Positions 205 through 33,180 of a DNA stretch of 64,000 nt are shown here, in pieces. The stretch lies in contig NW_026250424.1 of assembly GCF_024521635.1 (NCBI RefSeq), positions 1 to 64,000 on the forward strand, read 5' to 3'. Below the pieces are notes generated by a model. The model was not told the origin of the DNA. It saw only the letters and a list, made by a program, of their open reading frames with translations, and made no database searches. The position numbers and the translations under genes are program-made. Within the stretch, counting starts at the first letter, position 1. Every line of letters begins with the position of its first letter. Source of the DNA: Tricharina praecox. Taxonomy: Eukaryota.

Positions 205-3200
205 ATGGCTTCACAGGATTTACCTCTCTCGCGGGTTTCCATCGACAGAGATCCCACGATAGGCATCGGTGAGTTTTGGCCCGTGGGGTTTGCTCCCCTT
301 TCGTGTACGGCAACTGATACGTTTCCACAGCTGCCCCTCCAACCACCATAGCGACGGCTCCACGACTTCTAGATGGCTTCGGTGCCAGTAGTGATGAGAA
401 GATCGCGCCCTCAGACGCCTCGGACACATCCGCAGCAGCAACGGCGAAACCAAAGAAAGATGTCGTGGTCAAGGACAAACCGGTCAAGGCCAAGACCTCC
501 ACTTACTTCTCGCTCCTCCTCCGATCCGGCGCGGAGCCGTTCGACTACTTCCTGTTCACCATCGGCGTCATCGCAGCAGCCGGCGCCGGAGTTCCATTCC
601 CACTGTTGGCGATCCTATTCGGCGAGCTGGTGGACAACCTCAATTCAACATCATCTTCCTGCGGCAATGACACGAGCCCCGGATGGGGCCTGCAGAGCAC
701 TGTCAACACCAAAGTGCTCAACGTGGTGTACGTCACGATCGCGAGTTTCTCGCTGATCTACATCCACTCATTCGCGTTTTCGCTGTTCGGCGAGCGGCTC
801 GTACGGCGGCTGCGGGAGCAGTACTTCACCGCGCTGCTCCGCCAGGAGCCCGCCTTCTTCGATTCGCTGGAGGCCGGTGAGGTCTCGTCGCGGCTCGCCG
901 GAGATCTCGAGGTCATCCAGACCGGAACCTCGGAGAAGGTCGGCATCTGTATCTCGTCGCTGGCGTACTTCATCGCGGCGTATGCGGTCGCCTTCTATAA
1001 GGATGCGAAGCTCACGGCAATGCTCGTCGCCGTCATTCCGGCGTTCTTCATTACCACCACTGTCGGCGGCAAGTACGTCAAGAAATTCACCATCGGCATG
1101 AGCGATCACATCGCCGGCGCTACGGGAATCGTGGCCGAGAGCTTGGGGAATATGCAGATCGTGCTCGCGTTCAATGCGGGTGACAAGCTGGAGGGTATCT
1201 TTGCGAAGCAATTGGAGGCTGCTAGGGATTTGGGGCTGAAGAAGGCGTTCGCATCGGCTACTCAGTTGGGGTCCATGTTCTTCATCGGATATGGAGCGAA
1301 CGCACTGGCTTTCTATCAGGGAAGTAGACATATTGCCGCTGCTGCCGAAGGTGGAGGCGAAACCGGTGGAACGGTTGGTGCTGTTTACACCGTCATCTTT
1401 GTGTTGCTCGATGGTAAGACCTAGCCGGGTGGGATTGCATGTGCGTTGCTTGCTAACCAACGCTATACAGCTTCGTTTATCCTCTCCCAGGTTGCGCCGT
1501 TCCTTCAGATCTTTGGGGCAGCAGCAGGTGCATCGCAGAAGCTGATGGCGACCGTTAAACGCGAGTCCATGATCGACGGTACCCACGAGAGAGGCGGCGC
1601 ATTACCGGACCCGCTCAACGGCGAGCTGGAGCTCCACGATATCTGCTTCACGTATGCGACTCGGCCCGACAGTCAGGTATTGAACAATGTATCGCTGAAG
1701 CTCCCGGCAAACCAGCACACGGCCATCGTCGGAGCTTCCGGCAGCGGAAAGTCCACCATAATTTCCCTCCTGGAGCGCCTATACAATCCCACATCGGGGA
1801 ATATCACTCTCGATGGCGTAGACATCTCGAGCATCAATGTCCGTCTCCTGCGCGGCTCGATGGCACTGGTTCAGCAGGAGCCCACGCTGTTCGATCGTTC
1901 GATTCTGGAGAACATCGCGCTGGGTCTAGTCAACTCCAGTCACCCGGAGCACATTCATCTCAAGGGCGCACTACTGGACTCCAGTCTAGCCGACCTCGCT
2001 AAATCCATCACCAGCGGCACGCCCATCAGCGCGGCCGTAGCCGCCTGCACCCCCGAAGTCAAGGAAATCTACCAGCACGTCCTCGAAGCGACCGAGCAGG
2101 CCGACGCCGCCGCTTTTATTGCGAGCCTTGCCCATGGCGTCGCCACTCGTGTTGGCAGTGCCGGATCGCAGCTGTCGGGTGGTCAGAAGCAGCGGATAGC
2201 GCTGGCACGAGCTCTCATCCGGAAGCCGAAGATTCTTTTGCTCGACGAAGCTACCGCTGCCCTGGACTCGAAGAGTGAGACCCTCATCCAGAAGGCTTTG
2301 GATAAGGCCGCTATCGGACGCACCACGGTGTCGGTGGCCCACAGACTCTCGACCGTTAAGAAGGCGGATTGGATCGTGGTTATGGAGAAGGGACGCGTAC
2401 TGGAAAGGGGAACGCACAGGGAACTGACCGAACTCAATGGGCGTTATGCCGAGCTGGTGCGTTTGCAAAGCTTGGTCCACGACAACATCTCGAAGGCGTC
2501 CACGATCGCGGAGGAGGAGGCGACCGTGTCCGAGGTTCGGACTACGGAGAAGGCAGCGTTCATCGAGGCGACCAGCGAAAAGACCAAGGAAGAAAATGAA
2601 AACCAAATAGCGCCTGCTGCCAAGGGGTTCGACAAACCTACGATGGCGCTTGGCGAAACCATCAGCGGTATCGGTCGTCTCGCGAAGCCACAGACACTGC
2701 TCATCATCCTCGGTCTGATCACCTCCGCCATCATCGGAGGTATATACTCCGCCGAGGCGGTAGTGTTTGGAAATACCATCGATGCCTTGAACCCGTGCCA
2801 GGGTGCCGACGATGTGCGGTCCGCCGGTAAATTCTTCGGTCTCCTCTTCTTCATACTCGCCCTGGTGGAAGTCTCCTGCTACATCGTCAATGGCTCTTCA
2901 TTCGGATGGGTGGCCGAGAAGATGCTTTACCGCGTCAGGGTGCTATCGCTTCGCTCTTTGCTCCATCAAGATATGTCATGGCATGAGTCCGACGGCCGCA
3001 ACCCTACAAACCTCCTTTCCTACATTTCCAGCGACGCCAACTCGCTGGGTGCCCTGACGGGTGTTATCCTGGGCACAGTCTTTACCATCATCGTCAACAT
3101 GATCACGGGTATCGTACTGGCACACGTGATTGCCTGGAAGATTGCCGTGGTGCTTCTTGCAACGGTTCCGATCCTCCTGGCATCCGGTTTCATGCGTCTC

Positions 3201-4496
3201 CGCGTCCTCGCGGACTTCCAGACCCGCCACCAGAAAGCTTTCGCCGAGTCCGTCGGCATCACCGTCGAGGCCGTTTCCGCCATCAAGACCATCGCACCGT
3301 TCTCCCTCGAGAAGGAATCACTCCAGGTGTATCGGCGTTCGTTGGCGGGTCCCTACAAAGCCACTCTCAAGGCGATCGCGTACGGAAACTTCTGGCTGGC
3401 GATGGCATTCTCCATCTCGAACTTAGTCTACGCACTCGCCTACTGGTGGGGAACCAAGCAGATCGTCACGGGTCTCTACAGTCAGACGCAATTCTTCATC
3501 GTTCTTCCGGCGCTGCTCTTCTCCGCCCAGTCCTGTGGCCAGATGTTTTCCCTCGCCCCGGATCTGACCAAGGCCCGCATCTCTGCCGGGAACATCCTGC
3601 ACCTGCTCAGCATCGGTCCGGGAACCATGCTGGAAGAAGACACCACGCACTCCCCACTGTCGCTCCGCAAGAAACCCAACGACCCCGAGAAGGACGTTTC
3701 GCACAGCGACACGCACCTGCTGCCGTCGCCAGACGCGCCCTTCCACGGCCTCGACGTAACCTTCACCGACATCTCCTTCTCCTACCCCTCCCGACCGCAC
3801 GCGCGGGTTCTTAGCTGCCTCAACCTGCACATCCCCGCCGGCTCCTTCGGCGCGCTCGTTGGCCCCTCCGGCGCCGGCAAATCGACGATCCTTCACCTAC
3901 TCGAGAAATTCTACGCGCCGCACTCCGGACGGATCACCGTGGACGGCCGCGACATTGCCTCACTGTCACCTTTGGCACTTCGCACCGACATCGCACTCGT
4001 TCCGCAGGAGGGCATCCTGTTCGCGGGATCCGTACGCTTCAACATCTGCCTGGGCGCGCGACCGGGCCACGAGCCAAGCCACGAGGAGCTCGAGGCCGCG
4101 TGCCGCCTCGCAAACATCCACGATACGATCATGGAGCTGCCCGACGGCTACGACACACTGTGTGGGCCTGGCGGCCGCAGCTTCAGCGGTGGGCAGAAGC
4201 AACGACTGTCGATTGCCCGCGCGCTGATTAGGAAGCCGCGCCTGCTGCTGCTCGATGAGCCCACGTCTGCGCTGGATGCGGAGGCGGAGAGGGTGCTCCA
4301 GGGTGCCCTGGAGGGCGTGATGAAGCGGGGGTGCACGGTTGTCGCGATCGCACATAGGCTGGTCACCGTTAGGCGCGCGAATAGGATCTTTTATATCTCT
4401 GGCGGTCAGGTGTCGGATTTTGGAACGCATGAGGAGCTGCTAGGGCGCTGCGAAGGTTATGCGGACAGTGTCAGGGCGCAGATGGTTGAGAGTTGA
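205..4496 (+). CDS. Full-size ABCB/MDR (P-glycoprotein-type) transporter, TMD-NBD-TMD-NBD, ~1390 aa; probable siderophore exporter. Exons 205-268, 331-1413, 1471-4496
   Basis: Two NBDs with Walker A (GASGSGKS, GPSGAGKS), signature (LSGGQKQR, FSGGQKQR) and Walker B (LLLDEAT, LLLDEPT), plus two hydrophobic TMDs. Introns 269-330 (GTGAGT..CTGAT..CAG) and 1414-1470 (GTAAGA..CTAAC..CAG) join the ORFs in frame. The export role is inferred from cluster context. Confidence 0.92.
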
Positions 4497-5118
4497 GGGT
4501 TGAAGGTTGAGGATTGAGGATGACGCGGATGAGATATGTGCCATGTGAGAGATGAGATATGTGCCATGTGAGAGATGCGAAAAGCGGTGTGATGTGGTGT
4601 GGTGGTTTGAGTGTTTTGCTTTCGTTTATATGTATGCTTTTTTAATTGGTTAGATTATGATATGATTGGATTCTATGATTGCAGTAATGTGTGACTCGAT
4701 TCTTCGGAGAGCTCGAGTGTTCTCCCCTAAATGTCCGGCTCAATCAACTCCCATTACCTACTCTGCTCTTCACCAACGGCTTTCCGCCATTCTCAGAGAG
4801 GTCGGTATGCATGATGTCTCCAAACTTGCTCACGGGTGAACACAACCGATGATACTTCACTAGGCGTTAACTTGCCTTTGGGACGCGTCTTCCGCCGAAG
4901 TTTCGGTAGGCTCTCGAGTCGCCTGGGACACAAATACCCCATACTAAAAATTCGTCACGATTTAGATGAACACTTCCAAGTTCCAATCCCAAGGTTCATC
5001 AGATTACAACCTCTGCCTCGGGTACGTAGGTACAAACTACCTTCAATCCGGCAAATTCGTCGCGACACGGCAAGAGAAGTGGGTCATCACCGGCGACAAT
5101 TGCACAGCAAGTATTTAC

Positions 5119-5914
5119 ATCTGATACGGAAGTCTGGCCATGCCCCGACATGCACAACCGGCCGGCCAACTGCGAAAGCCATGGAAAGTGGCGCAAAAAC
5201 ATGTTTCCGCCGGTCGTCTACGCAACCAGGCTAACTATCAGGAGCTACCAGCAGCCCACGGCCAAGTCAGCAATTCCTCGCGAGGTGGAGGGTGGGGTAT
5301 CAGATCCTTCAAAGTGGGGGAGCGTCACCCAGCTTCCCGTTCCATCATGGCTATTTTTCTTCACGGCGTCTCCGATCCGCAGCGCTGTGCGACCAGGAAA
5401 GGTTATCAGATCCTTCAATCGATCTGGTCGATTGAGCACCACAAACCCGGAATAACCTGTTCGGGATGCTCCTGCATACAGTACCGCAGATGGCCACAAC
5501 AAGCACCGCGATGAAACTTGGTTATCAGATCCTTCAATTTCCCCCCATCGGCGCCCACTCTCAAGTGTGAATCCCCGACCCGCCGATGTCCCCATAGGGC
5601 ACGCCCAGCCGTGGTTGTCGGTAACTATATACTGACCCCCCGACAAAGAAGTGTAGAGAGTCATAACCATGGTGGGAGCCCCGCCCCGGCTCCAGTCGCC
5701 ACTGTTTTCTGGATCCATCCTCCGGCTCCGGAAGGAAAGAAAAAAATTCAGTTCGCGTTCGTCTGGCTCAGGCGCTAATCGCATCTGATATCGTTAAACA
5801 CTTTGCCGATCATTGCATCCTGGATCCTTGCCGTAGAGGTTAGTTCTGCATGGGCATGCAGGCCACCATCAGATATCGCTTCGACCGGGGGGAGGTGAGG
5901 CATTTTTATCTGAT
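5119..5914. promoter_or_regulatory. Cluster of SreA/Sre1-type iron-repressor GATA boxes upstream of sidF
   Basis: Perfect ATCWGATAA on the minus strand at 5403-5411, 5522-5530 and 5906-5914. One-mismatch copies at 5119, 5297, 5783 and 5868. Confidence 0.75.
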
Positions 5915-6242
5915 GGTGGTCGGCGCGGGGAAGAGGTGTGGATGTTTGTAGCATGTCGGGACTGGGCAGGCCGTTGAAGCGGGCAGCTTGCACCTTGCAG
6001 CTTGCAGGCATGGGTACAACATCGTGATGTGCCGAGGTCCGTATTATTTTTTGACAACGATTGGGCGCCGTGATGACTGATGATGCGGAAAGAATTCCCC
6101 ACGCGACTCCGTTGCTCACCCGGTTCTGGTCGTCTGTAGTTCATAATTATAGCTGATGGGAAAGTTAGTTTCTTGAATAGAACGGTGATATCCTGTGAGT
6201 ATCTTGATCTTCCGTGTGTATTGAAGCAACCAGCAAGCAATC

Positions 6243-7550
6243 ATGTCGTCGCCGCAACTGCAGATCCCCGCCGTCCGCCTTCCCCACCCCTACCTGACCG
6301 CCTACACTCTCCACCCCGCCGCCGCTCCGCTCTCCTACCGCCTTGTTCTCAGCACATCACAGCCCGCCGACGCGACCCTCCCTCCTCAGCTCCTCCACAA
6401 TGAGTCTCTCTCCTTCACCTTGCCCGCTACCACGCAAGGCGCCCCCTCCGCCGACAGTGACAACACCCCATACGCGCGCGCCCGCCGCTCCCTCCACTCC
6501 ATAATTTTCTGGACCGCCGAAACCACACCCACCGTCGGCCAGCTATGGCTCCTGACATATGTGCTCTTCACCTCCTACCACGCACAAGAAACCATCCGCA
6601 TCACGCTCTCGGGGCCCAACTCCGCGTCACTGCGGAAGGCCGCCCTGGCCGCCTTTCTGGCCCTACCCCACCCCTTCCCCACCACACCCGTAATCCCATA
6701 CCCGGATACGAGCTGGAGCACCGACGAGTTGCTCCTCTCGCGCTCAACCTTCTGGCAAGGCGCGGGCTCACCGTTCGGCCCGCGCGCCGCCTGGGTCACC
6801 GACCCATCCACCCTGCTCCCCACCGCGCCGCAAGTCGTCGAGTACACCTTCACGACGAAGTTCCCTAGCACGCGGGTGTACGTGCGGCACCCGATGCGGC
6901 CGTGCAAGCCCGCGCCGGGCAGCACCGTGTACTCGCGGTGGATCCCGCACCTGAACGAGGTGTTTACCATGGTCGCGGTGGACTGGCGCGACGCGGCGCA
7001 TCTGGATGCGTTCCACACGTGGCAGAACGACCCGCACGTGTCCGCCGGGTGGAATCAGAGCGGGCCGGTCGAGGAGCATAGGAAGTACCTCCAGGATAAC
7101 GAGGAGGACCCGCATATCCTCTCCGTCCTTGGATCGTTCGACGGCGAGCTCTTTGGGTACTTTGAGGTGTATTGGGGCGCCGAGGACCATCTCGGTGCGT
7201 ACTATAGGTTTGAGGATTGGGATCGAGGCAGGCACTCGCTCGTTGGAAATCGACGGCTGAGAGGCGCACACAGGGTTCGCGCCTGGTGGAGTGGGCTCAT
7301 GCATTATTGCTTCTTGGATGACTCACGGACGCAGAGACTCGTCGGTGAGCCCAGAGAGAGCAATAGTGTCGTCGCACAGTATGATCGTGACCACGGCTTC
7401 TGGCATGAGGGTACTGTGGACTTACCGCATAAGAGGGCGCATCTGGCGATAGTCACTAGGGAGAGATTTTTCAAGCTGGCGGCACTACATTGGGGTGACG
7501 AGAGTGGGATTGAGGGTGAGAGGGTTAAGAAGGTGGAGGCGAAGCTTTAG
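6243..7550 (+). CDS. sidF: N5-hydroxyornithine acyltransferase (SidF-like, C-terminal AlcB/IucB GNAT domain), 435 aa, intronless, PTS1 -AKL
   Basis: N-terminal LPHPYLT, FWQGAGSPFG and HPxRPxKPAPGSTVYSR motifs. GNAT region FHTWQNDPHV..GYFEVYW..DRGRHSLVG..VGEPR..DLPHKRA. Ends in AKL*. Confidence 0.85.
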   Translation: MSSPQLQIPAVRLPHPYLTAYTLHPAAAPLSYRLVLSTSQPADATLPPQLLHNESLSFTLPATTQGAPSADSDNTPYARARRSLHSIIFWTAETTPTVGQLWLLTYVLFTSYHAQETIRITLSGPNSASLRKAALAAFLALPHPFPTTPVIPYPDTSWSTDELLLSRSTFWQGAGSPFGPRAAWVTDPSTLLPTAPQVVEYTFTTKFPSTRVYVRHPMRPCKPAPGSTVYSRWIPHLNEVFTMVAVDWRDAAHLDAFHTWQNDPHVSAGWNQSGPVEEHRKYLQDNEEDPHILSVLGSFDGELFGYFEVYWGAEDHLGAYYRFEDWDRGRHSLVGNRRLRGAHRVRAWWSGLMHYCFLDDSRTQRLVGEPRESNSVVAQYDRDHGFWHEGTVDLPHKRAHLAIVTRERFFKLAALHWGDESGIEGERVKKVEAKL

Positions 7551-7734: not shown

Positions 7735-9540
7735 CTACGCCATCATACCGCCCTTGTCCCTCGGCCTTCTCGTCGGCCTGACATCCTTCACCACTGGCGT
7801 CCTGACCCCGTTGACGATCTCCTCCGCCGCCGTTCTCAGCCCCGGCTTCAGTATCTTCCCACTGCCTGTCTTGGGCCAATCCTCGACCGCCTCGCCCCGG
7901 CCCACCCAGAAGACGTACTGCGGCGCCTTGAACCTTGCAAGCCTCTGCCTACACCAATCTCGAACCTCCTCGTCCGACGTCCTCTCGCCCTGCAAGAAGC
8001 ACCCCACAGCCTCACCGTACTTCTCATCCTTGACGCCGACGACAGCGGCGGCCTCAATACGGGGGTGCTCGACGAGACGCTCCTCGATCTCAGCGGGGTA
8101 TATATTCTCTCCGCCGCGAATGACGATATCCTTAAACCTACCGGTGATGACGCAGTGCCCCTCATCATCGAAATACGCCTCATCACCCGTATGTAGCCAC
8201 CTCCTACCGTCCTCATGCACCCTAAACGTCTCCCTAGTCTTATCCGGTGCGCGAAAGTACCCGCCACTCAGCGCGTAACCAGCTATACACAGCTCTCCAC
8301 GCACTCCGACGGGCACGGGCGCAGTGGTGCCGGACACCACGACCTTCGCTGATATGTGCGGCATGATCTTGCCGACTGTGCGCAGCCGCAGGTCCAGCCG
8401 CGTGTCCGTGTGCGCGTTGAAGCACGTCGGCGACGCCTCCGTCAGCCCGTACGACGATGTGTACTCACGCATGCCCAGCTCCGAGAATAGTCGCTTCATC
8501 AATGGCGCGGGGACCGGCGAGCCCGCGATTATCCCTGTGCGCAGCGAGGAGCGCCAGCCTGCTGGCCGAGGCAGGGAGAGCAGCGCCGAGAACATCGTTG
8601 GTACGCCGTGAAGGGCTGTGCAGGAGTGGGAGTTTATCGCGGTGAGCACCGCGGACGGGTCGAATGTCTCCGAGGGGAGCACGATCGAGGCGCCGTGGTT
8701 GATGCATGCGAGAAGGCCCAGGACTAGGCCGAAGCAGTGGAATAGTGGTGGTGGACAGCAGAGGATGTCGGCCGGGGTGAAGTCCATGCGCTGGCCGATG
8801 AAGAGGGAGTTGTTGACCAGATTGTGGTGGGAGAGCATTGCTGCCTTGGGGTTTCCCGTACTGCCGGAGGTGAATTGGAGGTTCACCAGATCATGCATCG
8901 AAGTCTTTGCTTCTGCGGCCTTCAGATCCGCCGACTCGACCGCCTGTCCCGCCGTGATCACATCCGCGTACGTCGGGAAATCGGTATAAGTCCCGCGCAG
9001 GATCACGACGAGCTCCAGCGTCCCCTGCGGTGTCGTCTGTGTGCTCAGAGACGCCGCATTATCGTGTCTCCCAATCGTCGGCGTGATGAAGAGCACCTTG
9101 CACCCCGTGTGTGCCACGGCAAAGTCAAGCTCCGTAGTGGTATATGTGTTGTTCAGCACTACCAGGACTGCGCCGACTCGCGCCACGGCAAAGAACACCG
9201 CTACGTACTCGGCGCTGTTGCCTGCCATGATGCCGATGCGGTCGCCGTGCCCGACTCCCAGCGCCAGGAGCCCCCGCGCCAGCCGGTCGGCCTCCCCATC
9301 GAGGTCGGCGTAGGTCCATGCTGTGGACGTCCATGGAACCGTGACTGCTGGGCGCTCGGCGAAACGGGTAGCTTGTGTGCGGAGGAGGGAACCGAGCGTC
9401 AGCGTCAGCAGCGGTGTCGACGTTGGGCCGTGGAGGACGGAGAGTCGTGGTAGCTCATGGGAGTGGCGGAGGTGGGCGAGTGTTTGCTGGAGACGCTGTA
9501 GCGCTGTGCCGGACGGGGAGAAATGGGTTTGTTCTGCCAT
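7735..9540 (-). CDS. sidI: AMP-binding acyl-CoA ligase, SidI-like (mevalonyl-CoA ligase), 601 aa, intronless, N-terminal PTS2
   Basis: Motifs QFTSGSTGNPK, YGLTE, WLHTGD, GRFKDIVIRGGENIYP and PKTGSGKI. PTS2 RLQQTLAHL at residues 16-24 (9469-9495). The first ATG is at 9540; the ORF track start at 9618 is TTG. Confidence 0.85.
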   Translation of the reverse strand: MAEQTHFSPSGTALQRLQQTLAHLRHSHELPRLSVLHGPTSTPLLTLTLGSLLRTQATRFAERPAVTVPWTSTAWTYADLDGEADRLARGLLALGVGHGDRIGIMAGNSAEYVAVFFAVARVGAVLVVLNNTYTTTELDFAVAHTGCKVLFITPTIGRHDNAASLSTQTTPQGTLELVVILRGTYTDFPTYADVITAGQAVESADLKAAEAKTSMHDLVNLQFTSGSTGNPKAAMLSHHNLVNNSLFIGQRMDFTPADILCCPPPLFHCFGLVLGLLACINHGASIVLPSETFDPSAVLTAINSHSCTALHGVPTMFSALLSLPRPAGWRSSLRTGIIAGSPVPAPLMKRLFSELGMREYTSSYGLTEASPTCFNAHTDTRLDLRLRTVGKIMPHISAKVVVSGTTAPVPVGVRGELCIAGYALSGGYFRAPDKTRETFRVHEDGRRWLHTGDEAYFDDEGHCVITGRFKDIVIRGGENIYPAEIEERLVEHPRIEAAAVVGVKDEKYGEAVGCFLQGERTSDEEVRDWCRQRLARFKAPQYVFWVGRGEAVEDWPKTGSGKILKPGLRTAAEEIVNGVRTPVVKDVRPTRRPRDKGGMMA

Positions 9541-10617
9541 CTTTGGGGAGAGCTCAATGGACGACGGAGATCTTTGCGATGAGATGTTCTTTCCTTCAAG
9601 TGTCTGGTATGTACTCAATGCCGGCTAACTATACCACTGGAGATATTTTCCAGCTTCTCGGGACACTATACAAATCGTGTGTTTATTTAATGTCTGCCTG
9701 CTTGCTTGCCATCCTATCCATCCAGTCGATATTCCGAGATGGCTTACCCATGAATTGACCACTGGAGCTAGGAGCCTAAGACTGGCGGCCTCGCCGTGCT
9801 TCCGTGAAGACTGATTCTCCAGGGGGGGAAGAGCTGGCAGTGGCCAAAATGCAGGATATCAGTCTCGGATACCCGGAAGATCCGGTCCTCGACTTCCACC
9901 TCCACCTCCACTACTCTGCATCCACCCACTCACTCACCACATTTCCCCATTAGCGGTAGGTTTTGTTTCCCACCTTCAGGGAATCCCCGAATGTCAGAGT
10001 CAGAATCTCGATCGTGATCGGAGTTGCCCACTCCTGCGTCCTCGGTCTTCGGCGGCACGAGCATGAAGATTAAACCACTGGCCAGTCGAATCGGCTCGCA
10101 AGGGCCCCACATGCCATATGCAGGCTTCTAGATACCCTGGAGTTCGTTGATCGCATTCCACCTGAATAAGTTCACCATCGAATATCCGATCATCAGCACT
10201 CTGATAGTGCCATGTAACCCCTCATCCTATCTAAGCTTCCTCTTTCCCCACCAACGAACCGAAGGAGTAGGCCACCAGTTAGTAGGCGCCTACCTACTAT
10301 ATCGAGAATAACCAGCCAGAAAAAATCTCTGCTTGCCGATGCTGTATGGAGTAGTCAACGAGCTGCCGCTGGGGGGAGGTCCAAAGGGACATCTGTACCC
10401 GATCTAATCAGATCACGCAGGAACGCCATGCATGATGCATCGCACCACTTCCTTTTGCCTCGGATCTGGCCCGCGCAATCAATCAATCTACTACTACTAT
10501 GAGTACGGTACGTAATCAATTGCTAGTAGTTACCGAGCAATTGCTGGTTGGGTCCTCCGCCGGTTTTCGGTCTCCTCGGAAATCCAGAGTGCGTCTCCGC
10601 CCGCTTCCGACCCCATG

Positions 10618-11198
10618 ATCTGATAAATCGTCGCGGCTGGAAGCATCAGATAAAATTTTCCTGCAAGGGCTACCTCTTAGTGAAGTGCGTAGAGTGCGGT
10701 ACTCTACCTTCCCAAACATCTCCCTCCCACCGACCGGGCACCAGGGCTGGGAAGGGGGAAGGAGGGCAGGGAAGGGGGGGTGCGGTTAAAGTTATCAGAT
10801 GTGTCTCGAGCGCCGTGCTGTGAGTGTTCACGTCAAGTACGTGATCCATGTTATACGTCATTCTCCTCCGACATGTGCCGACCGACCCCTGGCTGGTCAC
10901 TGGTGCGGTGCGCTGTGCGATTATCAGATGGTCGATCGGCGTAAATAATACCTTGGCGAGGATTGGAAAAAATAAAAAATAAATATTGGTCGTCTCGGGG
11001 ATGGAGACTACCGGGCTGGAGGGAGCCTGGACGATGGGCAGGACATATCTGATCCGAAATTCCGCAGGATCTAGGCGAGGGTGTGGTGTGTGCCCTCCCG
11101 TCCCCCTCCTGTAACCGCAAACGCTAAACGGCCTACTATTCGTACTTCATGCATGTTTTTGGTCCTGATGCTAGTTTGTCTATCGCAAGATATCTGAT
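10618..11198. promoter_or_regulatory. SreA-type GATA boxes in the divergent sidI/NRPS promoter
   Basis: Perfect ATCWGATAA at 10618-10626 (+), 10645-10653 (+), 10792-10800 (-) and 10921-10929 (-). ATCAGATAT variants on the minus strand at 11045 and 11190. Confidence 0.75.
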
Positions 11199-14600: not shown

Positions 14601-17600
14601 TACTCAGCCACCCAGAGAGCGTGTACACCGACGTGAGATCTGATGTGTCTCCCGAGTTGCGCTGTTCCTTGAATCCCAAGCCTCAGGGCGAGCCGGAGCC
14701 GGAAGATTGTTCTGCACTTCAGCTACACGGGCAATTCGAGGAGCATGCCAAAACTCATCCCAGAGATATTGCTTTCATCTTCAAGTATGATCTCGATGAT
14801 GACTCGTGAGTATTCCCCTGTACTTATGCGAAAAGATCCACTTAGGCTAACACTGGCGTAGTCGCGCGGTCCAATGGACATATGCCGAGCTCAACGAGCG
14901 TGCCGATCGACTTGCCACTTACCTGGTACAGACCTACGGCCCGCTGACCGACTGCTGCATTCCTCTGTGTCTCCACAAATCTCCAGAGCTATACATCTCC
15001 GTCCTCGCGGTCCTCAAGGCCGGCGGAGGATGGTGTCCTATCGATCCCGCTTTCCCAGCGCAGCGCAAGCGTGATCTTATCCTACGCACCAAAGCGAAGC
15101 TTCTCCTGATCACCGACCCTGCGAATGTAGCCGGTGACGCCGTCCCAGCTGGCGTCCCTCTCGTCAACGTCGCCGACGCCCTAAGCCGTATCCCATCCCC
15201 AGACTATGCACTCTTGGCCGAGATCAAAGCCGCAGCGAAATCAAACCATCTAGCCTATCTGATCTGGACCAGCGGCACCACCGGTGCACCGAAGGGTGTT
15301 CCGATCGAGCACCACTCCGGGGTAGCATCAATGAAAGCGTTGCAAGCGGGAGTTTCGCACGACGTCGAAGGTGGTGTGCGACTGCTCCAGTTCGCATCCT
15401 ATACGTTCGATGTATTCATCCAGGATTTGTTCTACGCCTGGGGTGTTGGCGGTGTCCTCATAGCGGCTACGCAAGAGATCACGTTCGGAAATATCGCCGG
15501 GCTGGCGAACAAGACGAACGCGACTCACGCACACCTGACTCCTGCCTATTCCGCTGGAGTACCCAGGAGCTCGTGCCCCACTTTCCAGGTCATCACGATG
15601 ATCGGTGAGAAACTGACGCAGAATGTCGCCGACGACTGGGCCGTCAATATGAGGGCGTACAATACCTACGGACCTGCCGAGGCAACCGTCGTGTCTACGA
15701 TGCGCCAGTTCGGTGGAGTCGAAGACCCTGTCAAGGCCGAGAACGTCGGTATTCCCCTTCCGACGGTTTCCTGCCACGTCCTGCGCAACGGCCGCGTGAC
15801 GATGCTCGGAGGAGTCGGCGAGCTGGCGCTGGGAGGATCCCATCTCGCGCGTGGATATCTCGACGACTCGGAGAAGACGAACGCCAAGTTCATCTGGGAC
15901 GAGGAACTGCAAGAGCGCATCTACCTGACCGGCGATATCGTCCGTTTCCTTCACGACGGATCAATCGAATTCGTTGGTCGCACGGACGATCAGGTGAAGC
16001 TAGGAGGAATCCGTGTCGAGCTGAGTGAGATCAGTGCCGCAATGTTCAAATGCCATCCACTCGCCGACCGCGTAGAGACAATGTTCATCAACCGTCGCGA
16101 CCGTCCCAACAAGATCATTGTCACGTTCGTTGCAGCGTCTCAGCTCGCCATGTCGGACCTCAAGCCGAACACAGCCATCACGGGCGACGGTGCAGTGGAA
16201 GTCGCTCTTGCTGCCCGAGCCCAAGCACAGGAAATTCTGCCCGAGTACATGGTTCCGGGCCTGATTATGGTTATTCCTTTCGTGCCGCAAACCCCGTCGG
16301 CAAAGATTGACCGCAAAGCACTATCGGCAACCTACGAATCGATCGACTTGACTGAGTGGGATCTGAAACTGAATCCCGTCCCCAAGCAGCCAGTGCAGGA
16401 ATCTCGATCGGTTGTGGAGAGCGTTGTCATCAAGCAGATTGCCGTCTTGTCGGGCATGGAAATTGATTCCATCAATCTCAACGCATCTCTTCGGTCTTTG
16501 GGTATCGACTCCATCCGTGCCATTCAACTCGCCGCTTGGATGAAAAAACGCGGCTACACTCTCTCAGTGCTCAACATCATCGAGAGCCGAACCATCAAAG
16601 AGCTAGTAGCCTGCATTAAAGTCGAAAACGACGGAAGCGAAAAGGAAATCTCCTCTGGGAAGCTCGAGAAATTTGACGAGCTATGGCACCATTCCGTTGC
16701 CCTGAAGATGGGAGACGGTGCTGAGTTCGCCGTGCTCCCCTGCTCTCCGCTCCAGGAGGGCCTGTTGGGCGAAACGATGAAGAACCCATCAGCGTACTGG
16801 AGCAACAACTTCTTCACTCTCAGCCGCAAGATTGATCTCGACCGGCTTCACCGAGCTTGGTGCCAAGTAGCCGAACAGACGGAAGCTTTGCGTGCAGCAT
16901 TTATTCCAACAGCTGAGCTCTCTCACCAGGATCCTGTGTCAAGGACGTTCGTGCAGATCGTCTACAAGCAACATCCAGGTGTCGAGTGGAAGAAAGTATC
17001 CAATTCGGTTGATAATCTGCGGGATGAAGCGAAGAGACACGCAGCGGAGATCACCCAGAGAAACCATGAGAGGGCATATAACGCTCCGCTTTGGGCTGTG
17101 ACAATATTTGAGCGCGATGAGCACTCGGTGATGATGTGGTCACTGCATCACGCATTGCACGATGCGGCGTCGCTGGGGTTCATCATCGGCGACGTGCAGG
17201 CCGCTTATCTGGGTTATAACATCGTCCCAAGATCCCAATTGACGGATGCGCTGCGTCTCACAATAACGGAAGAGGAGGCAGACGAGAAGAAGAACGAGGA
17301 ATTTTGGACAGAAGAGTTGAAAGATTTTGTAGACCCAGAGGCAATCGGCTTCCCCGATCTCACAGGCAAGAAGCCAGACCCATCGAAAGGTACGATACTC
17401 CGAGAGATATCCCGAAGCAACAGAAATTGACTGCCGTGAGTAGGTCGCAAAGTATACCTCGAAACCGAGTGCAGAATATCAGCCACAGATATCCAGGCCT
17501 TTGCACCACACTTTGATCCCACGTCACTCATATCCATCGTTCGGGCTGCCTGGGGCTGTACGCTCGCCGGCTACCTCGAGACCTCGAACATCGTGATCGG

Positions 17601-20600
17601 GGAGACCCTCTCCGAGCGCATTCAGGACGCCACACTATCCAACACTATTGCGCCGCTCATCAGTGTCGTCCCAGTCCCCATCCAGGCACACGCAACCGCA
17701 CGCGAGATTCTCGAAAACCAATCACGTCTCTCGCGTGATGTGTGGAAACACCGGCACATTCTTCCCACCACTATGCGCAAAGTGCTGCAGCGACCGCAGT
17801 CCGGCGCTCTGTACCCAGCCATGTTCGTGTTCCACCCCAACTCCGAAGGTGCTTCGGAGGTCATTTCGGCGATCTGGACGCCAATGGAGGATATCGTCGG
17901 GCTTTCGGTCGAGCACGGTCTTGCGCTGGACGTGTTCATCGAGGCGGACGGTCAATACCGGCTGGTCTTCTCTGCCGAGGAAAGCCTTATGGGAAACGCT
18001 CAGCTGGAACTTCTCATGCGCCAGGTGGAGGCCTACGTCAAGTTAATGGCCATGCATGCCGATATGCCCGTACCAGAGCTCGTCCCATCATTTCCGGAAG
18101 AGCTGCTGTCGATCGCCCGTCCAGTTGTTAGCGAGGCCGTTCGCAGTGCCTATGAGACCGACCCGATGTCTTGGGTTGAGTACTACGCCGAGAAGCATCC
18201 AGAGTGGCTAGCGGCAGAGGTTGCCGATTCCATCACCAGCGAGGGAGCGCAAACCAGAGCTTGGAGCTACGCACAACTCAACGCGCAGGCCAATCGCATC
18301 GCAGGTTTTATCGACTCATGCGATATTGGCCGGAATCGAATGGTTGCACTCTGTCTCCCACGGACGCTCGAAGCGTATGCTCCGATCGCCGGTGTATTCA
18401 AGGCTGGGTGTGGTTATCTTTCGATCGACGAAGGACTCCCCGCAGAGCGTAAAGGTCTGCTGTTGGAAGACAGCAACGCGGGAATCCTGTTTACAACCAC
18501 CGAGTTGATAAAAACCTTCCCCGAGCTCCCTGCCGGCGTGGTAACTATCAATATCGACGATCCCGAGTTCGTCACGATGCTGGCGACCTACAGCGCAGTC
18601 AACAGAAGCCGAGACACGCGCCGCGATGACATTTCCTACCTTCTGTACACATCCGGTTCCACCGGGAAGCCAAAGGGCGTCCAGGTCTCTCGCGGTAATC
18701 TGAGTGCCTTCGTCGAGGCACAGTCCGACTTCATATGTCGCGAGGTACCCGCTACCCTCGAGCTTGGAGGGAAAGGAAAATATCTCGGCCTTGCTAGTAG
18801 AGCTTTCGATGTGCACGTCGCAGAGATGTTTTTGGCGTGGCGCCACGGCTTGGCCACTGTTACCGCACTGCGATCGATGCTCCTCGATGACATCGGACTG
18901 GCACTTGCCCAGCTGAAAGTTACTCACGCCAGCTTTGTGCCATCGCTCCTCGATCAAGCGGATCTTGTACCTGCGGACGTTCCAACCCTCCGCTTCATGG
19001 GTGTTGGTGGCGAGAAGATCTCGCAGCGCGTGTTGGACACCTGGGCAGCCAGTAAAACTGTCTCTCTCGTCAATGCCTACGGTCCGACGGAAGTCACCAT
19101 CTGTTGCAGTTCTTTGCGCGTCAGCCCCGATTCAACCGTAAGGAACATCGGACACTTGATCGGAAATCTCGTCGGTTACGTCTTCGTTCCCGGAACTTTC
19201 ATCCCCACAAAGCGCGGACAGCCCGGAGAGCTATGTGTCAGCGGTGACCTCGTAGCCCTCGGCTACTACCAACGGCCAGAGGCAAAGGGCTTCGTCGATT
19301 ACAATGGCGCACGCCTCTACCGCACCGGTGACATGGTGCGCCTTCTATCCGGCGATGCTATCGAGTACCTCGGACGCAGCGATGACCAAGCCAAGATCCG
19401 TGGTCAGAGACTAGAACTTGGAGAGGTTTCGGAGGGAATTCGTGCTTCGGCGAAGGAAGAGCTGGATGTTGCCACTCTCATCCTCCAGCATCCGGAATTG
19501 TCGCGGCCACAACTCGCGTGTTTTGTCGCCCGGTCAGCTGATCGTGCTACATTTTCGGGCCACGCCCCCCAGTTCCTGGTGAAGGACTACCAAGTCTTCG
19601 CCCTCGAGTTGCAGGCTGGATGTCGGCAGAAGCTGCCTGCATACATGGTGCCCGATGTCGTGATCCCGATCAACATCATGCCACTCGCCCCGATGTCCGG
19701 AAAAGCGGACGCAAAACTGCTCAAAGCTTTGTTTTCTGGGATTCCGCTTTCAGATCTACTTCGAGGATCTGGTGTCCGGCAGAGTGCCGCCTCACGGGAG
19801 TTGACGCAAGCTGAGATGGAGATCCGGGATATGATCGCGAAGATCATCAAGATTGAGCCGGATCACGTTTTCCATGCCTCCAACATTTTCGAGCTCGGCA
19901 TTGATAGTCTCAGCGCGATCACCCTCTCGTTGAAGATGAAGAACATCGGCTACAACTCATCAGTTGCCAGCGTTCTCGGACATCCCACCATCGAAGAACT
20001 TGCCGCCCTGCCACGCAATACCGTCGCCAGAGAAAATTCAGCTGAAAACGAGCTTCTATTCGCTCGGGAGCAGCTACGGGTTTTTGATGAGCAATTGCGA
20101 CCACGTATTTCTTCGATAGTTGGTGTTTCCGCAGCCCCCATTGCGGCGGTGAGACCTACTTTGCCGCTGCAGGAGGGAATCATCGCACGGTCGATAAACA
20201 GCGAGAGCGGGCCCATCTATGTCAATCACGTCATCCTCAAGCTGGGTAGCGAGGTGGACCTGGAGAAACTCCGTCAGGCATGGAAGGAAACCATCGATAG
20301 CAACGAGATCCTACGCACATGCTTCTGCCAACCCGACGATGCGTTCGTCCAGGTCGTTCTCTCTGCTGGTACTCTCGAAGAAGAATGGCAGGAGTCTTCC
20401 GCCGAGACAGTCGATGATGCTCTCGCCGCTTTCCGTCGCCGACAGAATGACGTTGCCACGGAGATTATTTCTCAGCTTCATCAGAGACCGCCGCTGAGAC
20501 TCAACCTGTCGCGCACTAGGTCTGACTCGTCCCTGCTGTTCATCTCGATGCATCACTCGATCTATGATGGCGAGTCCTTCATGATGTTGTTGGACGAGGT

Positions 20601-23600
20601 TTCCAGACACTATCAATCCACAGCAGTCCCTGAGCGGGTCGCCTTCAGCTCGTTCCTTGAGCATTTGGCATCTCAGAGCATCGAGAAGGCGAAGGATTTC
20701 TGGACTAACTCCCTCACTGATTGCCGCTCCACATTGCTGTCAACGGAGACAGGGTATCGCAAAGAAGAGGAGGTCTTCTTCTCCGAACATGTGATGTCAC
20801 GTCCACTTTCTGCGCTTGAAGCGTGCGCGTCGAGCATGCGGTGCACCTTGCCATCGCTGGCACAGTTAGTCTTCGGTATCCTCCTGGCCCAGCGCGTTGG
20901 CCACAATGATGTCATCTTCGGCTCTGTCCTCTCGGGCCGCACGGCAACTGTGGACCTCGCCGAGATGATATTGGCACCCTTAGTCACCACGATCCCGCAA
21001 CGTGTCAAGCTCCAGAGCGGCACGTCAACGATCGCCGAGTTGGCAGAGGATTACCAAAAGTCGAACGCTCTGTGCTTGGAGTACCAGCACATCTCGTTGA
21101 GACAGATTCAGCGCTGGGCCGGTGCTGACAAACCGTTGTTTGACACCCTGTTTTCGTTCACCCGCAAGGTGGCCACTCCCGGTGCTGGCTTGTGGGAGGA
21201 GATTGAGAGTGCAACCGTGGCGGACTACCCTTTTGCCATTGAGTTCGAGGCGGATACGGAAGAGAACAAGTTGGTTGCGCGCGTGGGCTTCACGCCGTCG
21301 TACGGAACTGCGGCAGAGGTGAAGGTAGTATTGGAGAAGTTTGATTTCCTGCTTCAGGAGATCGAGCATGGGCATGCAACGTTGAAGCTTAGCAGTCTGG
21401 GTGTGTCGGACTTGAATACTGACATCGAGGACCGCAAAACGGATGTTTACGATGAAGTCTCGTGGTCTTCTACAGAGACCACCATGCGCGAACTTGCTGC
21501 AGAGATTTGCCAGCTTCCACTCGCTCAAATTACTAAAGGTGCGACGTTTTATAGCCTGGGCATCGACTCCGTCACTGCTATCCGGTTCGCTCGCAGACTG
21601 AGGGAGATGGATATCGCGGTGTCATCATCGGACGTGATTCGCTTCCCCTCGATCGGTGCACTGTCAAGGCATGTGGCGCAGGTGGAGGATGAGGCCAGTC
21701 CTTCGGTGGAAGCGCCAGCCATCAATATCACCGAAGCATTGAAACGAAGCAACATCGAAGTTGACTACGAGTCAATTGAAGCCGTCTATACTTGCACGCC
21801 ACTTCAGAGTGGAATGATAACCCAAACACTTGCGTCCGATGGCCGACTCTATGTCCACCACCATTGCGTCAAACTAGACTCCAGCGTCGATCTGCTTCGG
21901 CTTCAGAGCTCCTGGTTTAATGTGGTTGAGAAGACTGATGTCCTTCGCACGTCATTCTATCACTCGCCCACATCCGAAAATCCCTGGACAGCGCTGGTCC
22001 GCAAAACATCGCCCGCAAAAGTGATAGAGGACGATGCTTCCGTCTCTTTTGACCAGACTCTGGCAGACATCGTGAATAACGTGGTATTTACCGAAGAACA
22101 CGACTTCCACAATCCTCCTGCTCAGGCCAGGATCGTCCGAACCCCGACGGACAATTACTTCGTCCTTTCCCTTCATCACAGTCTTTACGACGGTGTTTCA
22201 ATTCCATTTGTTTTCCACGATTTGGCATCGGCTTATCTTGAGGGCTGTAAGTTCACCCCCACATCATTCCGAAAAACCGGAAGTTAATAATCGCAGCTTT
22301 TCCTCGCCGCCGCCCCTTTTCCGACGCTGCGGCCCTCATCGCTCAGCGCAAAGACGATGCGGCCGAATACTGGCTTCGCACCATCTCGGATTATTCGGTC
22401 ATTCACCTAGCCCGTTTAACCGAGGGCGAGAGCTCGTCCGCGATCCACCAAGCATCGAAGACGCTGGGCCCAACCACCGCCGAAATCTTAGCCGGCTGCA
22501 AGAGCCTGGGAGTTACGCTTCAGAGCGTGCTACTTTTGGCCTGGGGCAAGACGCTGTCTTCGCTCGTTGGCCGTCGCGACATCGTGTTTGGCCAGGTCGT
22601 TTCCGGTCGTACTTTGCCGCTCGACGGAGTGGAAGGCATCTCTGGTCCCCTCTTCAACACCGTTCCTATGCGCATCCGGCTTCCGAACAACCTGCAGACC
22701 AACGAGAGCGCTGTATCGCAGATCCAACTTGCCGCCGCCGAGTCGCAGGTCCATCAACACGCATCCCTGCGCACCATCCAGAACAGGTGGCGTGCGGTAA
22801 GCGGCGGCACCGCTGGAGTTCTCTTCGACACACTGTTAGTGTTCCAAAAGGTGGAGGAGGACGATCGGGAAACCTCTAGTCTCTGGACTCCGGTTGAAGT
22901 GGAGACTGGTGAAGTGCAAGCGGAATATCCCCTCAACATCGAGATTGTTCAGGGAACTCAAAATGTGGTTCTGCAAGCTGCAGCTCAAGGAGAGTTTATG
23001 ACAAATGAGAAGTTAAAAGACGTCTTGGAGGAACTTTCCTTGACGGTACTGGATATCCTACAGAACCCCGCTCGCTTCGCAACTGCTTTCCCTGCCAGTC
23101 TGCACACTCTTCCGGTCGTCATCTCCGACTCGATCGCCGTGAAGGGTGACGCGTTAGATGCAAGGACCGAGTTCAACCCCGATGAGGCCGCGATCAGAAA
23201 GATCATCTCAGAGATTGCTTCTTTCCCGAGTGAAAACATCACCCTCCGTGTAAGTATCTACGCGTACGGCATTGACTCCATATCGGCCATTCGCGTCGCT
23301 GCGGCGTGTCGCAAGCAGGGAATTAAGCTCAGCGTCGCCGACATCCTCCAGGGAGGTTCCATCGAGGGCATCTGTGCACGATTCGCCAGACTTCAGAAGC
23401 CTCCGACTTCAGAAGAGGCCACTGTTCTTGTGTCACCGGTCGAAAAGGATCGCGCCCTCGCCATCCTCAGTCTCTCCGATGATGCGGTGGAGACAGTACT
23501 ACCCGTCCTTGCTGGCCAATTCTTTCATCTCGAGGGTTGGCTCAAGTGCGGACGGACGTCCTACCAGCCGACCTGGACTTTTGCGGCAAAAGAGCGTCTG

Positions 23601-24797
23601 AATATCGACCGTCTCCAGGTGGCATGGCAGGCACTACTCCACCGCCACCAAATCCTCCGCACCGCCTTTGCCGCCGTCTCGCCCGAGAAGGTGTTGCAGG
23701 TTATCCTGAAGCCTTCCACTCTGGCCGAGTCGCATGGGTGGTCTTTCGAGGAAGTAGAAGGGGAAGCGACTCCCGCCGTGAAGAAGGCGGTGTACGACCT
23801 GGCACACTCCCCGCTGGATATGTTTACCCCTCCTGTCAGGCTGACGGTCCTCCGCGGAGACGACTTTGACGCGGTGCTATTCAACTTCCATCACGCCGTG
23901 TACGATGCCTGGAGCATGCCTTCGCTGATCTCGGACTTGATCTCACTCTACTCGGGAACCGGATGCACGTCGAATGCCGCGTTCGCGACCTTCGCCGAGT
24001 TCGTTGCAACCACGCGCTCCAAGTCGGAAGAAGAATCATACTGGAAGGCGTCTCTAGCCGCAGCCGAGTCGACCGTGATCGGGCCTACCTACAACGCATC
24101 GCCATGTGCGTCCGCCGAGCAAACACTCCTGATCGTCCCCGGCGTCGTCGAGAACTACACGTCACTTGAAGCGCGCTGCAAGACCGCTGGCATGGCGTTA
24201 TCGAGCCTCGTTCTCACCTCTTTCTCGCGCGTTCTCGCCGCCATGACAGAAACGCGAAACCCCACCTTCGGCATCTACCAAGTGGGCCGATCCGCCTCCT
24301 TTGACGGGCTGGAGACGCTAGCGGGCCCCTGCCTGAACCTGCTCCCACTCACCGTTCCCGCGGACCTGTCAGCTCGTGACGCAGCAAAAACGATCCAAGC
24401 CGAACTCGGCAGCCGATCGGCATTCGAGCAGACGTCTGTCCGCGACGTCCTCCGGTACCACTCCGGCCCGCCGCTCGAGTTCAACGTCTTTGTCAATCTC
24501 CTCTGGCACACGGAGAAGATGCGCGAGGATCCGGCGGCGCTGCTGAAACATATCACGGTGGGCGCGCCCGCGGATTTCTGCAGTGAGGGGCCGTTGAACG
24601 GAATTACCGCGCTGGATGCCCTCGATGTAACGGGATTTCCGCGCCATCCGGTCTTTGTCGACCTCGGGCCGAACTTGGAGACGGATACCATCGATTTCGG
24701 GGTTAGGTGCGATAGGGTGCTGATGAACGAAGAGGAGGTGCAAGCGTTTGTGGCAAGGGTGGGCGAAGAGTTGATGGCTGCGGTAGAGGAATTGTAG
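11646..24797 (+). CDS. sidC: Ferrichrome-type siderophore NRPS (SidC/NPS2 family), ~4292 aa; architecture dA-(partial C)-A-T-C-A-T-C-T-C-T-C. Exons 11646-11984, 12043-12099, 12155-14805, 14862-17389, 17444-22246, 22297-24797
   Basis: Three A-domain folds, four T domains (LGIDSI, LGIDSL, LGIDSV, YGIDSI) and four full C domains (HHALHD, HHSIYD, HHSLYD, HHAVYD). The terminal T-C-T-C repeats are typical of ferrichrome synthetases. Five GT-AG introns link the ORF fragments in frame; the first two are less certain. Confidence 0.9.

Positions 24798-29512: not shown

Positions 29513-29547
<35 letters not shown>

Positions 29548-30129: not shown

Positions 30130-30164
<35 letters not shown>

Positions 30165-33173: not shown

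Positions 33174-33180
<7 letters not shown>

Follow-up and report, generated by a model that had tools for sequence, protein, structure and literature searches.

A SidC-lineage ferrichrome-type synthetase with a degenerate first module, clustered with sidF-like, sidI-like, and ABC transporter genes in Tricharina praecox

The first 64,000 nucleotides of contig NW_026250424.1 of Tricharina praecox (assembly GCF_024521635.1), hereafter the window, carry a four-gene siderophore locus from a Pezizomycetes host. In it, a nonribosomal peptide synthetase (NRPS) of the SidC lineage, whose first module is, by its motifs, a catalytically dead relic, lies beside genes for a SidF-type transacylase, a SidI-type ligase, and an ABCB transporter, with SreA-type sites in two shared promoter regions. 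Here, we describe the gene content of this locus, its transcription and splicing, the deletion and motif losses in module 1, the selection acting on the relic, and the enrichment of SreA-type sites, and we propose substrates, a product, a route of export, and a mode of regulation. The reading that we favor, with about even confidence, is that an iron-repressed cluster makes a secreted ferrichrome-family siderophore built on three glycines and carrying anhydromevalonyl groups.

Results

Pfam matches on the long frames resolve four genes, specifically a full ABCB transporter, an Acetyltransf_8 GNAT protein, a minus-strand AMP-binding ligase, and a multi-domain NRPS, and both these matches and the homologues place the genes together as a preliminary description of the window had stated. 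The large exon at 17491-22245, which belongs to the NRPS, shows 100% identity to a partial hypothetical protein of T. praecox in NCBI, BZA05DRAFT_405506 (3206 aa). The features of the locus are as follows.

205..4496, plus strand: ABCB (P-glycoprotein/multidrug resistance [MDR]-type) full transporter, 1390 aa (Pfam, gene model)
5403..5914: three ATCWGATAA sites (5403, 5522, 5906) in the sidF upstream region, between the ABC gene and sidF
6243..7550, plus strand: SidF-clade N5-hydroxyornithine transacylase, 435 aa, without intron, C-terminus AKL (Pfam Acetyltransf_8)
7738..9543, minus strand: predicted SidI-type acyl-CoA (mevalonyl-CoA) ligase, 601 aa (AMP-binding and AMP-binding_C)
9544..10805, minus strand: 5' leader of the sidI transcript, with short upstream open reading frames (ORFs) (RNA contigs)
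10618..10929: four ATCWGATAA sites (10618, 10645, 10792, 10921) in the divergent sidI/NRPS promoter
11646..24797, plus strand: SidC-lineage ferrichrome-type NRPS, 4292 aa (spliced RNA contigs of two runs, Pfam, alignment)
12155..13890, plus strand: degenerate first adenylation domain, protein residues ~133-710 (alignment)
13891..14805, plus strand: remnant of the first condensation domain, C-terminal half, HHxxxDG-type motif absent, directly upstream of the second adenylation domain (tblastn, alignment)
14862..17389, plus strand: second adenylation domain (code DVQHTITVVK, Gly type), second thiolation domain, and start of the next condensation domain
18316..20028, plus strand: third adenylation domain, predicted to activate acyl-hydroxyornithine (code DVASGGAICK)

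The NRPS gene model rests on contigs from two public sequencing runs (X1 and X2) whose RNA label was only guessed; we took them as transcripts because they skip seven GT-AG stretches exactly, and their depths were not used for ranking genes. Five of the joints define NRPS introns (11985-12042, 12100-12154, 14806-14861, 17390-17443, and 22247-22296), the removal of which leaves, from the ATG at 11646 to the stop at 24797, a single 4292-codon frame with one terminal stop. The public model of this gene is partial (3206 aa) and begins at window position 15073; therefore, the annotation omits the N-terminal quarter and, with it, the dead module 1. Across window positions 5001-24900, contigs of run X2, which is filed under another organism code, show nine single-base differences (at 6695, 6798, 6818, 11627, 12439, 14708, 22684, 23383, and 24789), and that run is a near-identical strain or label.

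Aligned with nine SidC homologues, and with A. fumigatus SidC compared with the window by tblastn, the protein has a distinctive order of adenylation (A), thiolation (T), and condensation (C) domains: a degenerate A1 (dA1), a deletion that took out T1 together with the N-terminal half of C1, what is left of C1 (its C-terminal half), and then A2-T-C-A3-T-C-T-C-T-CT. The core motifs of A2 and A3 are complete, and four T domains have their serine; four HxxxD motifs, the terminal one among them, are likewise in place. Judged by these motifs, the working part of the enzyme is A2-T-C-A3-T-C-T-C-T-CT, preceded by the dA1 and half-C1 relic. Set against the Type II layout of three complete A-T-C modules followed by T-C-T-C, the first module is incomplete, and the remainder (A-T-C-A-T-C-T-C-T-C) is in place. 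Both the best named matches, which are SidC-type synthetases at 41-48% identity, and the Gly-type A2 code mark its kinship with SidC.

That module 1 is broken had been noted in the preliminary description, and the alignment bears this out in several ways. Specifically, residues ~819-1161 of A. fumigatus SidC, which span T1, including its LGLDS serine, and the HGIFDGGS-bearing N-terminal half of C1, have no counterpart, and the gap is bridged by only ~27 residues; SidC residues 1164-1457 map to window positions 13970-14803. Within A1, the damage falls at positions that do not vary among the nine homologues: D235 (FDPS to FGPS) and K517 (SSGK to SSGR, in SSGRLDR) are lost, the DQVK of core motif A8 is gone together with one residue, and the P-loop (core motif A3) reads TSGTDGRPKG. 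The 10-residue code has become GPLMWMGINR, compared with DPMMWMAINK in SidC A1, while A5-like and A7 motifs are retained. D235 and K517 are conserved in every ferrichrome-synthetase A domain surveyed by Bushley et al. (PMC2644324), including the degenerate one of Sib1. On this evidence, module 1 is a catalytically dead relic.

The relic has nevertheless been kept. The exon encoding dA1 and the C1 remnant, searched against 1.84 billion representatives, retrieved a 910-aa protein (P0363) that aligns colinearly (query 1-883 to 27-909) at 70% identity, which means that this relative has the same deletion in module 1 and that the deletion predates their divergence. The K517R change recurs in the A1 of the relative, in which core motifs A3, A4, and A5 have undergone additional losses unlike those of T. 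praecox, a pattern that fits a noncatalytic role for dA1. Members of the P0363 cluster occur on contigs of 10,842, 26,745, and 39,440 nt with SidF-like (76%) and SidI-like (78%) proteins, and two JGI metagenome contigs, L001 and L002, represent the relative here. Pairwise Nei-Gojobori ratios of nonsynonymous to synonymous substitution (dN/dS) between T. praecox and the relative are 0.22 for dA1 (68% identity), 0.14 for the C1 remnant (74%), 0.10 for A2 (85%), and 0.15 for T2-C (74%), alongside 0.09 for the ABC transporter (81-84%), 0.13 for SidF (76%), and 0.12 for SidI (78%); with dS at 0.9-1.3, and hence near saturation, these ratios are rough. The relic is clearly constrained by purifying selection, yet it is about twice as free to change as an A domain that works.

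The SreA-type sites tie the genes together. The sequence ATCWGATAA, an extended motif over-represented upstream of SreA-regulated genes (PMC2610380), occurs eight times in the window against 0.53 expected, a count reached by none of 100 shuffles, whereas the generic HGATAR is not enriched there (101 seen versus 120.8 expected). Seven of the eight sites sit in two cluster promoters, three upstream of sidF and four between sidI and the NRPS, where the preliminary description had placed SreA boxes. The eighth lies to the right of the NRPS, at 25427-25435. A comparison of synteny, which the same description had proposed as a check, found the order ABC-SidF-SidI(minus)-NRPS kept in L001, with SreA-type sites at equivalent places. 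Specifically, L001 holds six ATCWGATAA sites against 0.04 expected, which lie in front of the ABC and SidF genes and in the SidI/NRPS intergenic region. Those at 9424 and 9902 are the counterpart of the sidF-upstream sites of T. praecox, and the sidI/NRPS intergenic counterpart has three sites in L001 and three in L002. We infer from these sites that the cluster is co-regulated and iron-repressed in the SreA manner.

The two intact A domains indicate what the peptide may contain. The 10-residue codes were read at offsets that we take from the GrsA numbering, and the same offsets applied to A. fumigatus SidC return the AMP1 code published for AnSidC. At all 10 positions, the A2 code agrees with AnSidC AMP2, and it is also that of FgNPS1 and Umfer3 AMP2, three domains predicted to load Gly (PMC2644324). 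A3, the last A domain, is of the hydroxamate-ornithine type, has D235, K517, and intact core motifs, and finds its best PDB match in the A domain of SidN (3ITE, E 5e-135). Its code agrees with that of Fer3 A3 at 8 of 10 positions, with A. fumigatus SidC at 7, and with AnSidC and SidN at 6 each. It has S278, A322, and I330, as in acetyl-type SidC, and departs from Aspergillus SidC at positions 239, 299, and 331. Position 331 (window 19530-19540) is Cys here and Gly in all 114 other homologues parsed, in a survey of 121 sequences of which 5 were unparsed and two parsed rows were the same T. praecox protein. Fer3 has Met at this position, and SidN, which activates anhydromevalonyl-hydroxyornithine (AMHO), has Gly; position 331 was, hence, rejected as an AMHO signature.

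Residues 7-424 of the SidF-like protein align with residues 26-451 of A. fumigatus SidF (7QF6) over both domains (E 1e-121), its identity to most of the ascomycete SidF-type proteins listed is 44-52%, and an unspliced RNA contig spans 6171-7504. The SidI-like protein is 55-60% identical to the Aspergillus neighbors of SidC, for example ATEG_05074 (beside SidC ATEG_05073) and BDW74DRAFT_175901 (beside 175902), and 56% identical to 'Acyl-CoA ligase sidI [Penicillium diatomitis]'; several SidI-type matches are mislabeled 'Sid4'. Its residues 16-24, RLQQTLAHL, align with a conserved RRLQQTLSH of the Aspergillus proteins. From consensus patterns, we take this stretch to resemble a type 2 peroxisomal targeting signal (PTS2) and the AKL end of SidF to resemble a type 1 signal (PTS1), and 114 of 120 SidF homologues end in [P/A/L/T/S]KL. 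The ligase is, thus, of the ANL type, close to SidI, and furnished with an N-terminal PTS2-like motif. A 2014 review places SidI, SidH, and SidF in peroxisomes, with signals conserved in orthologues (PMC4162504). The leader of the sidI transcript measures 1.1-1.2 kb, contains introns at 9666-9747 (spliced in run X1 only) and 10342-10398, and includes upstream ORFs of 59-67 codons.

The ABC gene was modeled with introns at 269-330 and 1414-1470, which were picked by eye, and the model reads 1390 aa with a single terminal stop. Pfam gives ABC_membrane-ABC_tran-ABC_membrane-ABC_tran over 318-4496, the nearest Atlas clusters are fungal ABC multidrug/Pmd1-type proteins, and the gene at the same position in L001 is the one compared above. 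As a full-size MDR-type transporter, with a transmembrane and a nucleotide-binding domain each present twice, in a cluster with a synthetase, it is presumed to be the siderophore exporter.

In L001, the gene order reads MaoC-type hydratase, Pyr_redox_2 oxidoreductase, ABC transporter, SidF, SidI (minus strand), and NRPS. The MaoC-type (hydratase 2) gene (L001:70-1061), two genes upstream of the ABC gene, encodes a product ending in SRL (PTS1-like), and the oxidoreductase gene (L001:1553-3130) lies just upstream of the ABC gene; neither of these two L001 genes is preceded by an ATCWGATAA site. The MaoC-type hydratase is a candidate to fill the role of the absent SidH. Further afield, a SidC-type NRPS and a SidF-like protein of Rasamsonia (P0009/P0130) are both on 504,458-nt contigs, and a SidC-type NRPS, a SidF-like, and a SidI-like protein of A. 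avenaceus (P0061/P0242/P0247) are all on 142,953-nt contigs, so a similar linkage may exist in some Eurotiales.

Best matches in Paecilomyces, Thermoascus, and Rasamsonia prompted the idea of a recent transfer of the cluster from Eurotiales, which found no support. In a FastTree phylogeny of 29 rows (28 homologues chosen by name, midpoint root, no outgroup), the NRPS forms a long branch deep among the SidC-type sequences, where it pairs with Cirrosporium and falls outside the clade of Eurotiales, which fits old vertical descent rather than recent transfer. In the same tree, Fusarium SidC-type proteins (P0100, P0110, and P0115) nest in the Eurotiales clade beside Talaromyces, which looks like a transfer or paralogue issue.

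The remainder of the window was scanned with Pfam in subsets of its ORFs: 12 of 38 ORFs of at least 150 aa in 1-30 kb, 62 of 82 of at least 130 aa in 24.8-64 kb, and 49 of 70 of at least 70 aa in 24.8-34 kb. In these subsets, Condensation and PP-binding matches fall only in the NRPS gene, so no second NRPS was found and the absence of a SidD/NPS6-type synthetase from the window, as previously described, stands. The right-flank subset (24.8-64 kb) yielded no siderophore-related frame, and that of 24.8-34 kb no significant Pfam match. The ~13 kb that follow the NRPS on its right (window 24800-38500) are without a Pfam-recognizable coding frame, and beyond it lie ordinary neighbors identified by Pfam.

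38506-39861: DHDPS-family enzyme
51592-52191: kinetochore protein Sos7
54515-56075: sugar transporter
57603-59880: hybrid histidine kinase (HisKA, HATPase_c, receiver domain)

Discussion

Our results suggest a pathway in which only two A domains of the T. praecox synthetase work. By analogy with A. nidulans SidC, A2 would load glycine, and a Gly3 chain would be built on T2. A3 would load N5-acyl-N5-hydroxyornithine onto T3, T4, and T5, and the terminal C domain would cyclize the hexapeptide to cyclo-(Gly)3-(acyl-hydroxyOrn)3. The acyl-hydroxyornithine may come from peroxisomal SidF, with the anhydromevalonyl group derived from mevalonate through the clustered SidI and a hydratase encoded outside the window. 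The product would then be a Gly3 analogue of ferrirubin/ferrirhodin, exported by the ABCB pump, and the retained dA1 and half C domain would most likely serve only as a structural platform for A2.

The ring is the firmer part of this proposal. In SidC, according to Jenner et al. (PMC10192304), A1 has a preference for Ser, while Gly and acetyl-hydroxyornithine are loaded by A2 and A3, respectively; C2A2T2 by itself builds Gly3, whether or not its C domain is inactivated; the C domain after T2 sets chain length; and an engineered SidC without A1-T1 makes ferrichrome as its sole product. A natural parallel is XpSidC of the lichen fungus Xanthoria parietina, which lacks A1, T1, and most of C1 and gives ferrichrome when expressed in A. 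fumigatus (PMC13462969). From the identity of the A2 code, the SidC lacking A1-T1, and XpSidC, the ring segment is predicted to be Gly-Gly-Gly, so that the peptide would comprise three glycines and three acyl-hydroxyornithines; this ring is already known from ferrichrome and would not be new. The expectation in the preliminary description that a broken module 1 probably means a different, perhaps undescribed, ring is therefore not sustained. Since an A2T2 construct without the preceding C domain was reported to be highly unstable (PMC10192304), the conserved half C domain fits a structural need of A2.

The acyl group is a more finely balanced matter. In its favor, SidI is kept with its PTS2-like motif and a dN/dS of 0.12, and because it is conserved and constrained, some anhydromevalonyl siderophore is presumably made. 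The sidF, sidI, and NRPS genes are linked on shared contigs in the relative, which we also count for this reading. No further NRPS or SidD gene was found near the cluster, neither in the 13 kb on its right nor, in the relative, in the 4.4 kb to the left of the ABC gene. The A3 code, which comes nearest to that of the methylglutaconyl-type Fer3 A3, and the Cys at position 331, where the other homologues parsed have Gly, are counted on this side too. Pyronema confluens belongs to the same family as T. praecox. Its seven NRPS genes are described as one siderophore type, one of a kind not known, and five of the AAR type, and its siderophore NRPS has four A-T-C and two T-C units; none of the seven is of a recognized SidD type (PMC3778014). 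Finally, Epichloe festucae SidN sets a precedent, as this SidC-like NRPS uses trans-anhydromevalonyl-hydroxyornithine for the extracellular ferrichrome-type epichloenin A (PMC3642064); thus, a SidC-like enzyme can take AMHO.

The main rival, which we regard as possible though doubtful, is plain ferrichrome as the product (cyclo-(Gly)3-(N5-acetyl-N5-hydroxyOrn)3), with SidF acting as an iron-induced transacetylase, the ABC transporter exporting the product, and SidI, together with a hydratase and SidF, feeding a separate SidD/NPS6 synthetase of the fusarinine or coprogen type elsewhere in the genome. A series of observations counts against anhydromevalonyl, and most of them favor this rival. 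First, every module-1-less SidC tested in the two studies (PMC10192304, PMC13462969) gives plain ferrichrome, and XpSidC shares its cluster with SidA and an ABC transporter of the SitT type. Second, A. fumigatus SidF is reported to be bifunctional, accepting acetyl-CoA as well as anhydromevalonyl-CoA, and to serve ferrichrome-type synthesis too; therefore, SidF beside an NRPS is no marker of anhydromevalonyl, and the premise of the preliminary description that SidF works for SidD is out of date. Third, sidI adjoins sidC in many Aspergilli without feeding SidC. On gene order, this divergent pair is old and widespread in Aspergillus, and the earlier caution that such linkage is no proof was well placed. 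Fourth, no SidH-type hydratase, SidA, or SidL was found within the window. Fifth, the A3 domain has S278, A322, and I330 in common with acetyl-type SidC, and agrees at only 6 of 10 positions with the AMHO-activating SidN A3. In addition, PMC12934349, citing Zhou 2024, places T. praecox enzymes near desferriferrichrome enzymes; a SidD/NPS6 gene could lie elsewhere in the T. praecox genome; and the contigs from the RNA runs cannot rank expression or show iron regulation.

Against plain ferrichrome stand the lack of a SidD-type gene near the cluster on either side (the left side being known from the relative), the absence of a recognized SidD-type NRPS from what is reported of P. confluens, the company that sidF and sidI keep with the NRPS in the relative, and the A3 pocket, in which positions 239, 299, and 331 are unlike those of Aspergillus SidC. 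Hence, of the proposal in the preliminary description that the NRPS takes the product of SidI and SidF, the co-regulated cluster holds and the anhydromevalonyl group remains favored, at around evens; the presence of SidF, however, is no proof of it, and SidH is absent from the window.

Less probable again, and in our view rather improbable, are other backbones or mixed acyl groups, such as an asperchrome-like mix of acetyl and anhydromevalonyl, a shorter peptide, or a residue from an altered A1 that accepts a non-alpha-amino acid. The purifying selection on dA1 (dN/dS 0.22) and its retained A5-like and A7 motifs are consistent with an altered A1, a bifunctional SidF could provide two acyl-ornithines, and the chain-length-controlling C domain after T2 could differ in T. 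praecox. A1 has, however, neither D235, K517, nor a T domain of its own, the relative has lost further and different parts of its core motifs A3, A4, and A5, and the A2 code is the same as that of a Gly domain. That the NRPS is a decaying pseudogene whose neighbors work only with synthetases elsewhere might be suggested by the damaged module 1 and the partial public model, but it is close to refuted by the uninterrupted 4292-codon frame after RNA-supported splicing, core motifs that are undamaged throughout A2, A3, and the four T and four C domains, and dN/dS of 0.10-0.22 versus the relative at dS ~1.

Seen beside known systems, all of the parts are of known kinds, and their combination is unlike every system compared. 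With A. nidulans and A. fumigatus SidC, the T. praecox synthetase shares its lineage, a divergent sidI neighbor, an identical A2 code, and the A3-T-C-T-C-T-C tail. Unlike them, it has naturally lost T1 and the catalytic half of C1 while keeping a dead A1, its cluster holds sidF and an ABC gene, and its A3 differs at the three positions given above. The engineered SidC without A1-T1 demonstrates that an enzyme of this kind gives a Gly3 ring (PMC10192304). XpSidC is similar in being a natural SidC homologue without a working module 1 and with an ABC transporter in its cluster. It differs in that its A1 is lost, in a fungus reported to be without SidI, SidH, and SidD, whereas dA1 of T. praecox is under selection and SidF and SidI are clustered; conversely, the XpSidC cluster includes SidA, and the T. 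praecox window does not (PMC13462969). Although T1 and half of C1 are gone, the T. praecox enzyme is not of the compact XpSidC type, as an A1-derived domain of ~580 aa is retained. In S. pombe Sib1, the degenerate A domain keeps D235 and K517 and has its own T and C domains (PMC2644324), unlike dA1 of T. praecox, which has neither residue and no T domain.

Among systems with other acyl groups, SidN of Epichloe likewise adjoins an MDR-type ABC gene (abcI), but its three A-T-C modules are all complete and its product is an octapeptide; neither sidF nor sidI is reported from its cluster, its A3 code is DVGGGGVIGK, and no siderophore-like NRPS besides SidC is reported there from the genome (PMC3642064). 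The Fer3 system of Ustilago maydis is similar in joining a ferrichrome-type NRPS to a mevalonate-pathway C6 acyl group from a SidF-type acylase, and its A3 code of the methylglutaconyl type, DVSSGGAIMK, is the closest to that of T. praecox. The hydratase Fer4 and the acylase Fer5 are described as SidH and SidF orthologues without peroxisomal signals (PMC4162504). Unlike the T. praecox enzyme, Fer3 has three working A domains (Ser, Gly, and AHO), and its pathway is not known to have a SidI step.

We presume the synthetase of the Histoplasma capsulatum siderophore (SID) cluster to be of the SidD/NPS6 kind, whereas that of T. praecox is of the SidC lineage. The H. capsulatum cluster, reported as SID1, SID3, SID4, NPS1, OXR1, MFS1, and ABC1 (PMC11380514), is iron-regulated by induction and likewise combines the acetylase SID3 and the acid-CoA ligase SID4 with an ABC transporter; it also lists an oxidoreductase, OXR1, which may be compared with the Pyr_redox_2 gene of the T. 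praecox relative. What appears distinct in T. praecox, on present comparisons, is the union of a SidC-lineage enzyme that has a selected, dead A1, no T1, and no catalytic C1 with sidF, sidI, and an ABCB pump under shared SreA-type sites in a Pezizomycetes host.

A bolder version of the anhydromevalonyl reading, which we offer tentatively and consider unlikely in its full detail, is that T. praecox and its relatives secrete an undescribed cyclo-(Gly)3-(N5-anhydromevalonyl-N5-hydroxyOrn)3, with dA1 and the half C domain as a selected structural scaffold for A2, which forms the poly-glycine part, and a non-orthologous peroxisomal MaoC-type (hot-dog fold) hydratase in place of SidH. We know of no list of ferrichromes that includes a Gly3 anhydromevalonyl member. 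By calculation, its iron complex, Fe-cyclo(Gly3-AMHO3) or C39H60FeN9O15, would give [M+H]+ at about 951.4, lower by 60.02 than ferrirubin/ferrirhodin, compared with about 741.2 for the ferri-form of ferrichrome. If the anhydromevalonyl group proves true, the locus would be a compact, self-contained pathway of ligase, transacylase, synthetase, and pump, useful for engineering hydroxamates. If plain ferrichrome proves true, the finding would be an ordinary one, yet SidF would be a clustered acyltransferase serving a ferrichrome synthetase. Under either outcome, the T. praecox NRPS represents an intermediate stage between SidC and the fully compacted XpSidC of the lichen, in which the carrier and catalytic parts of module 1 are gone and the dead A domain is retained by selection, making the structural role of noncatalytic NRPS domains directly testable.

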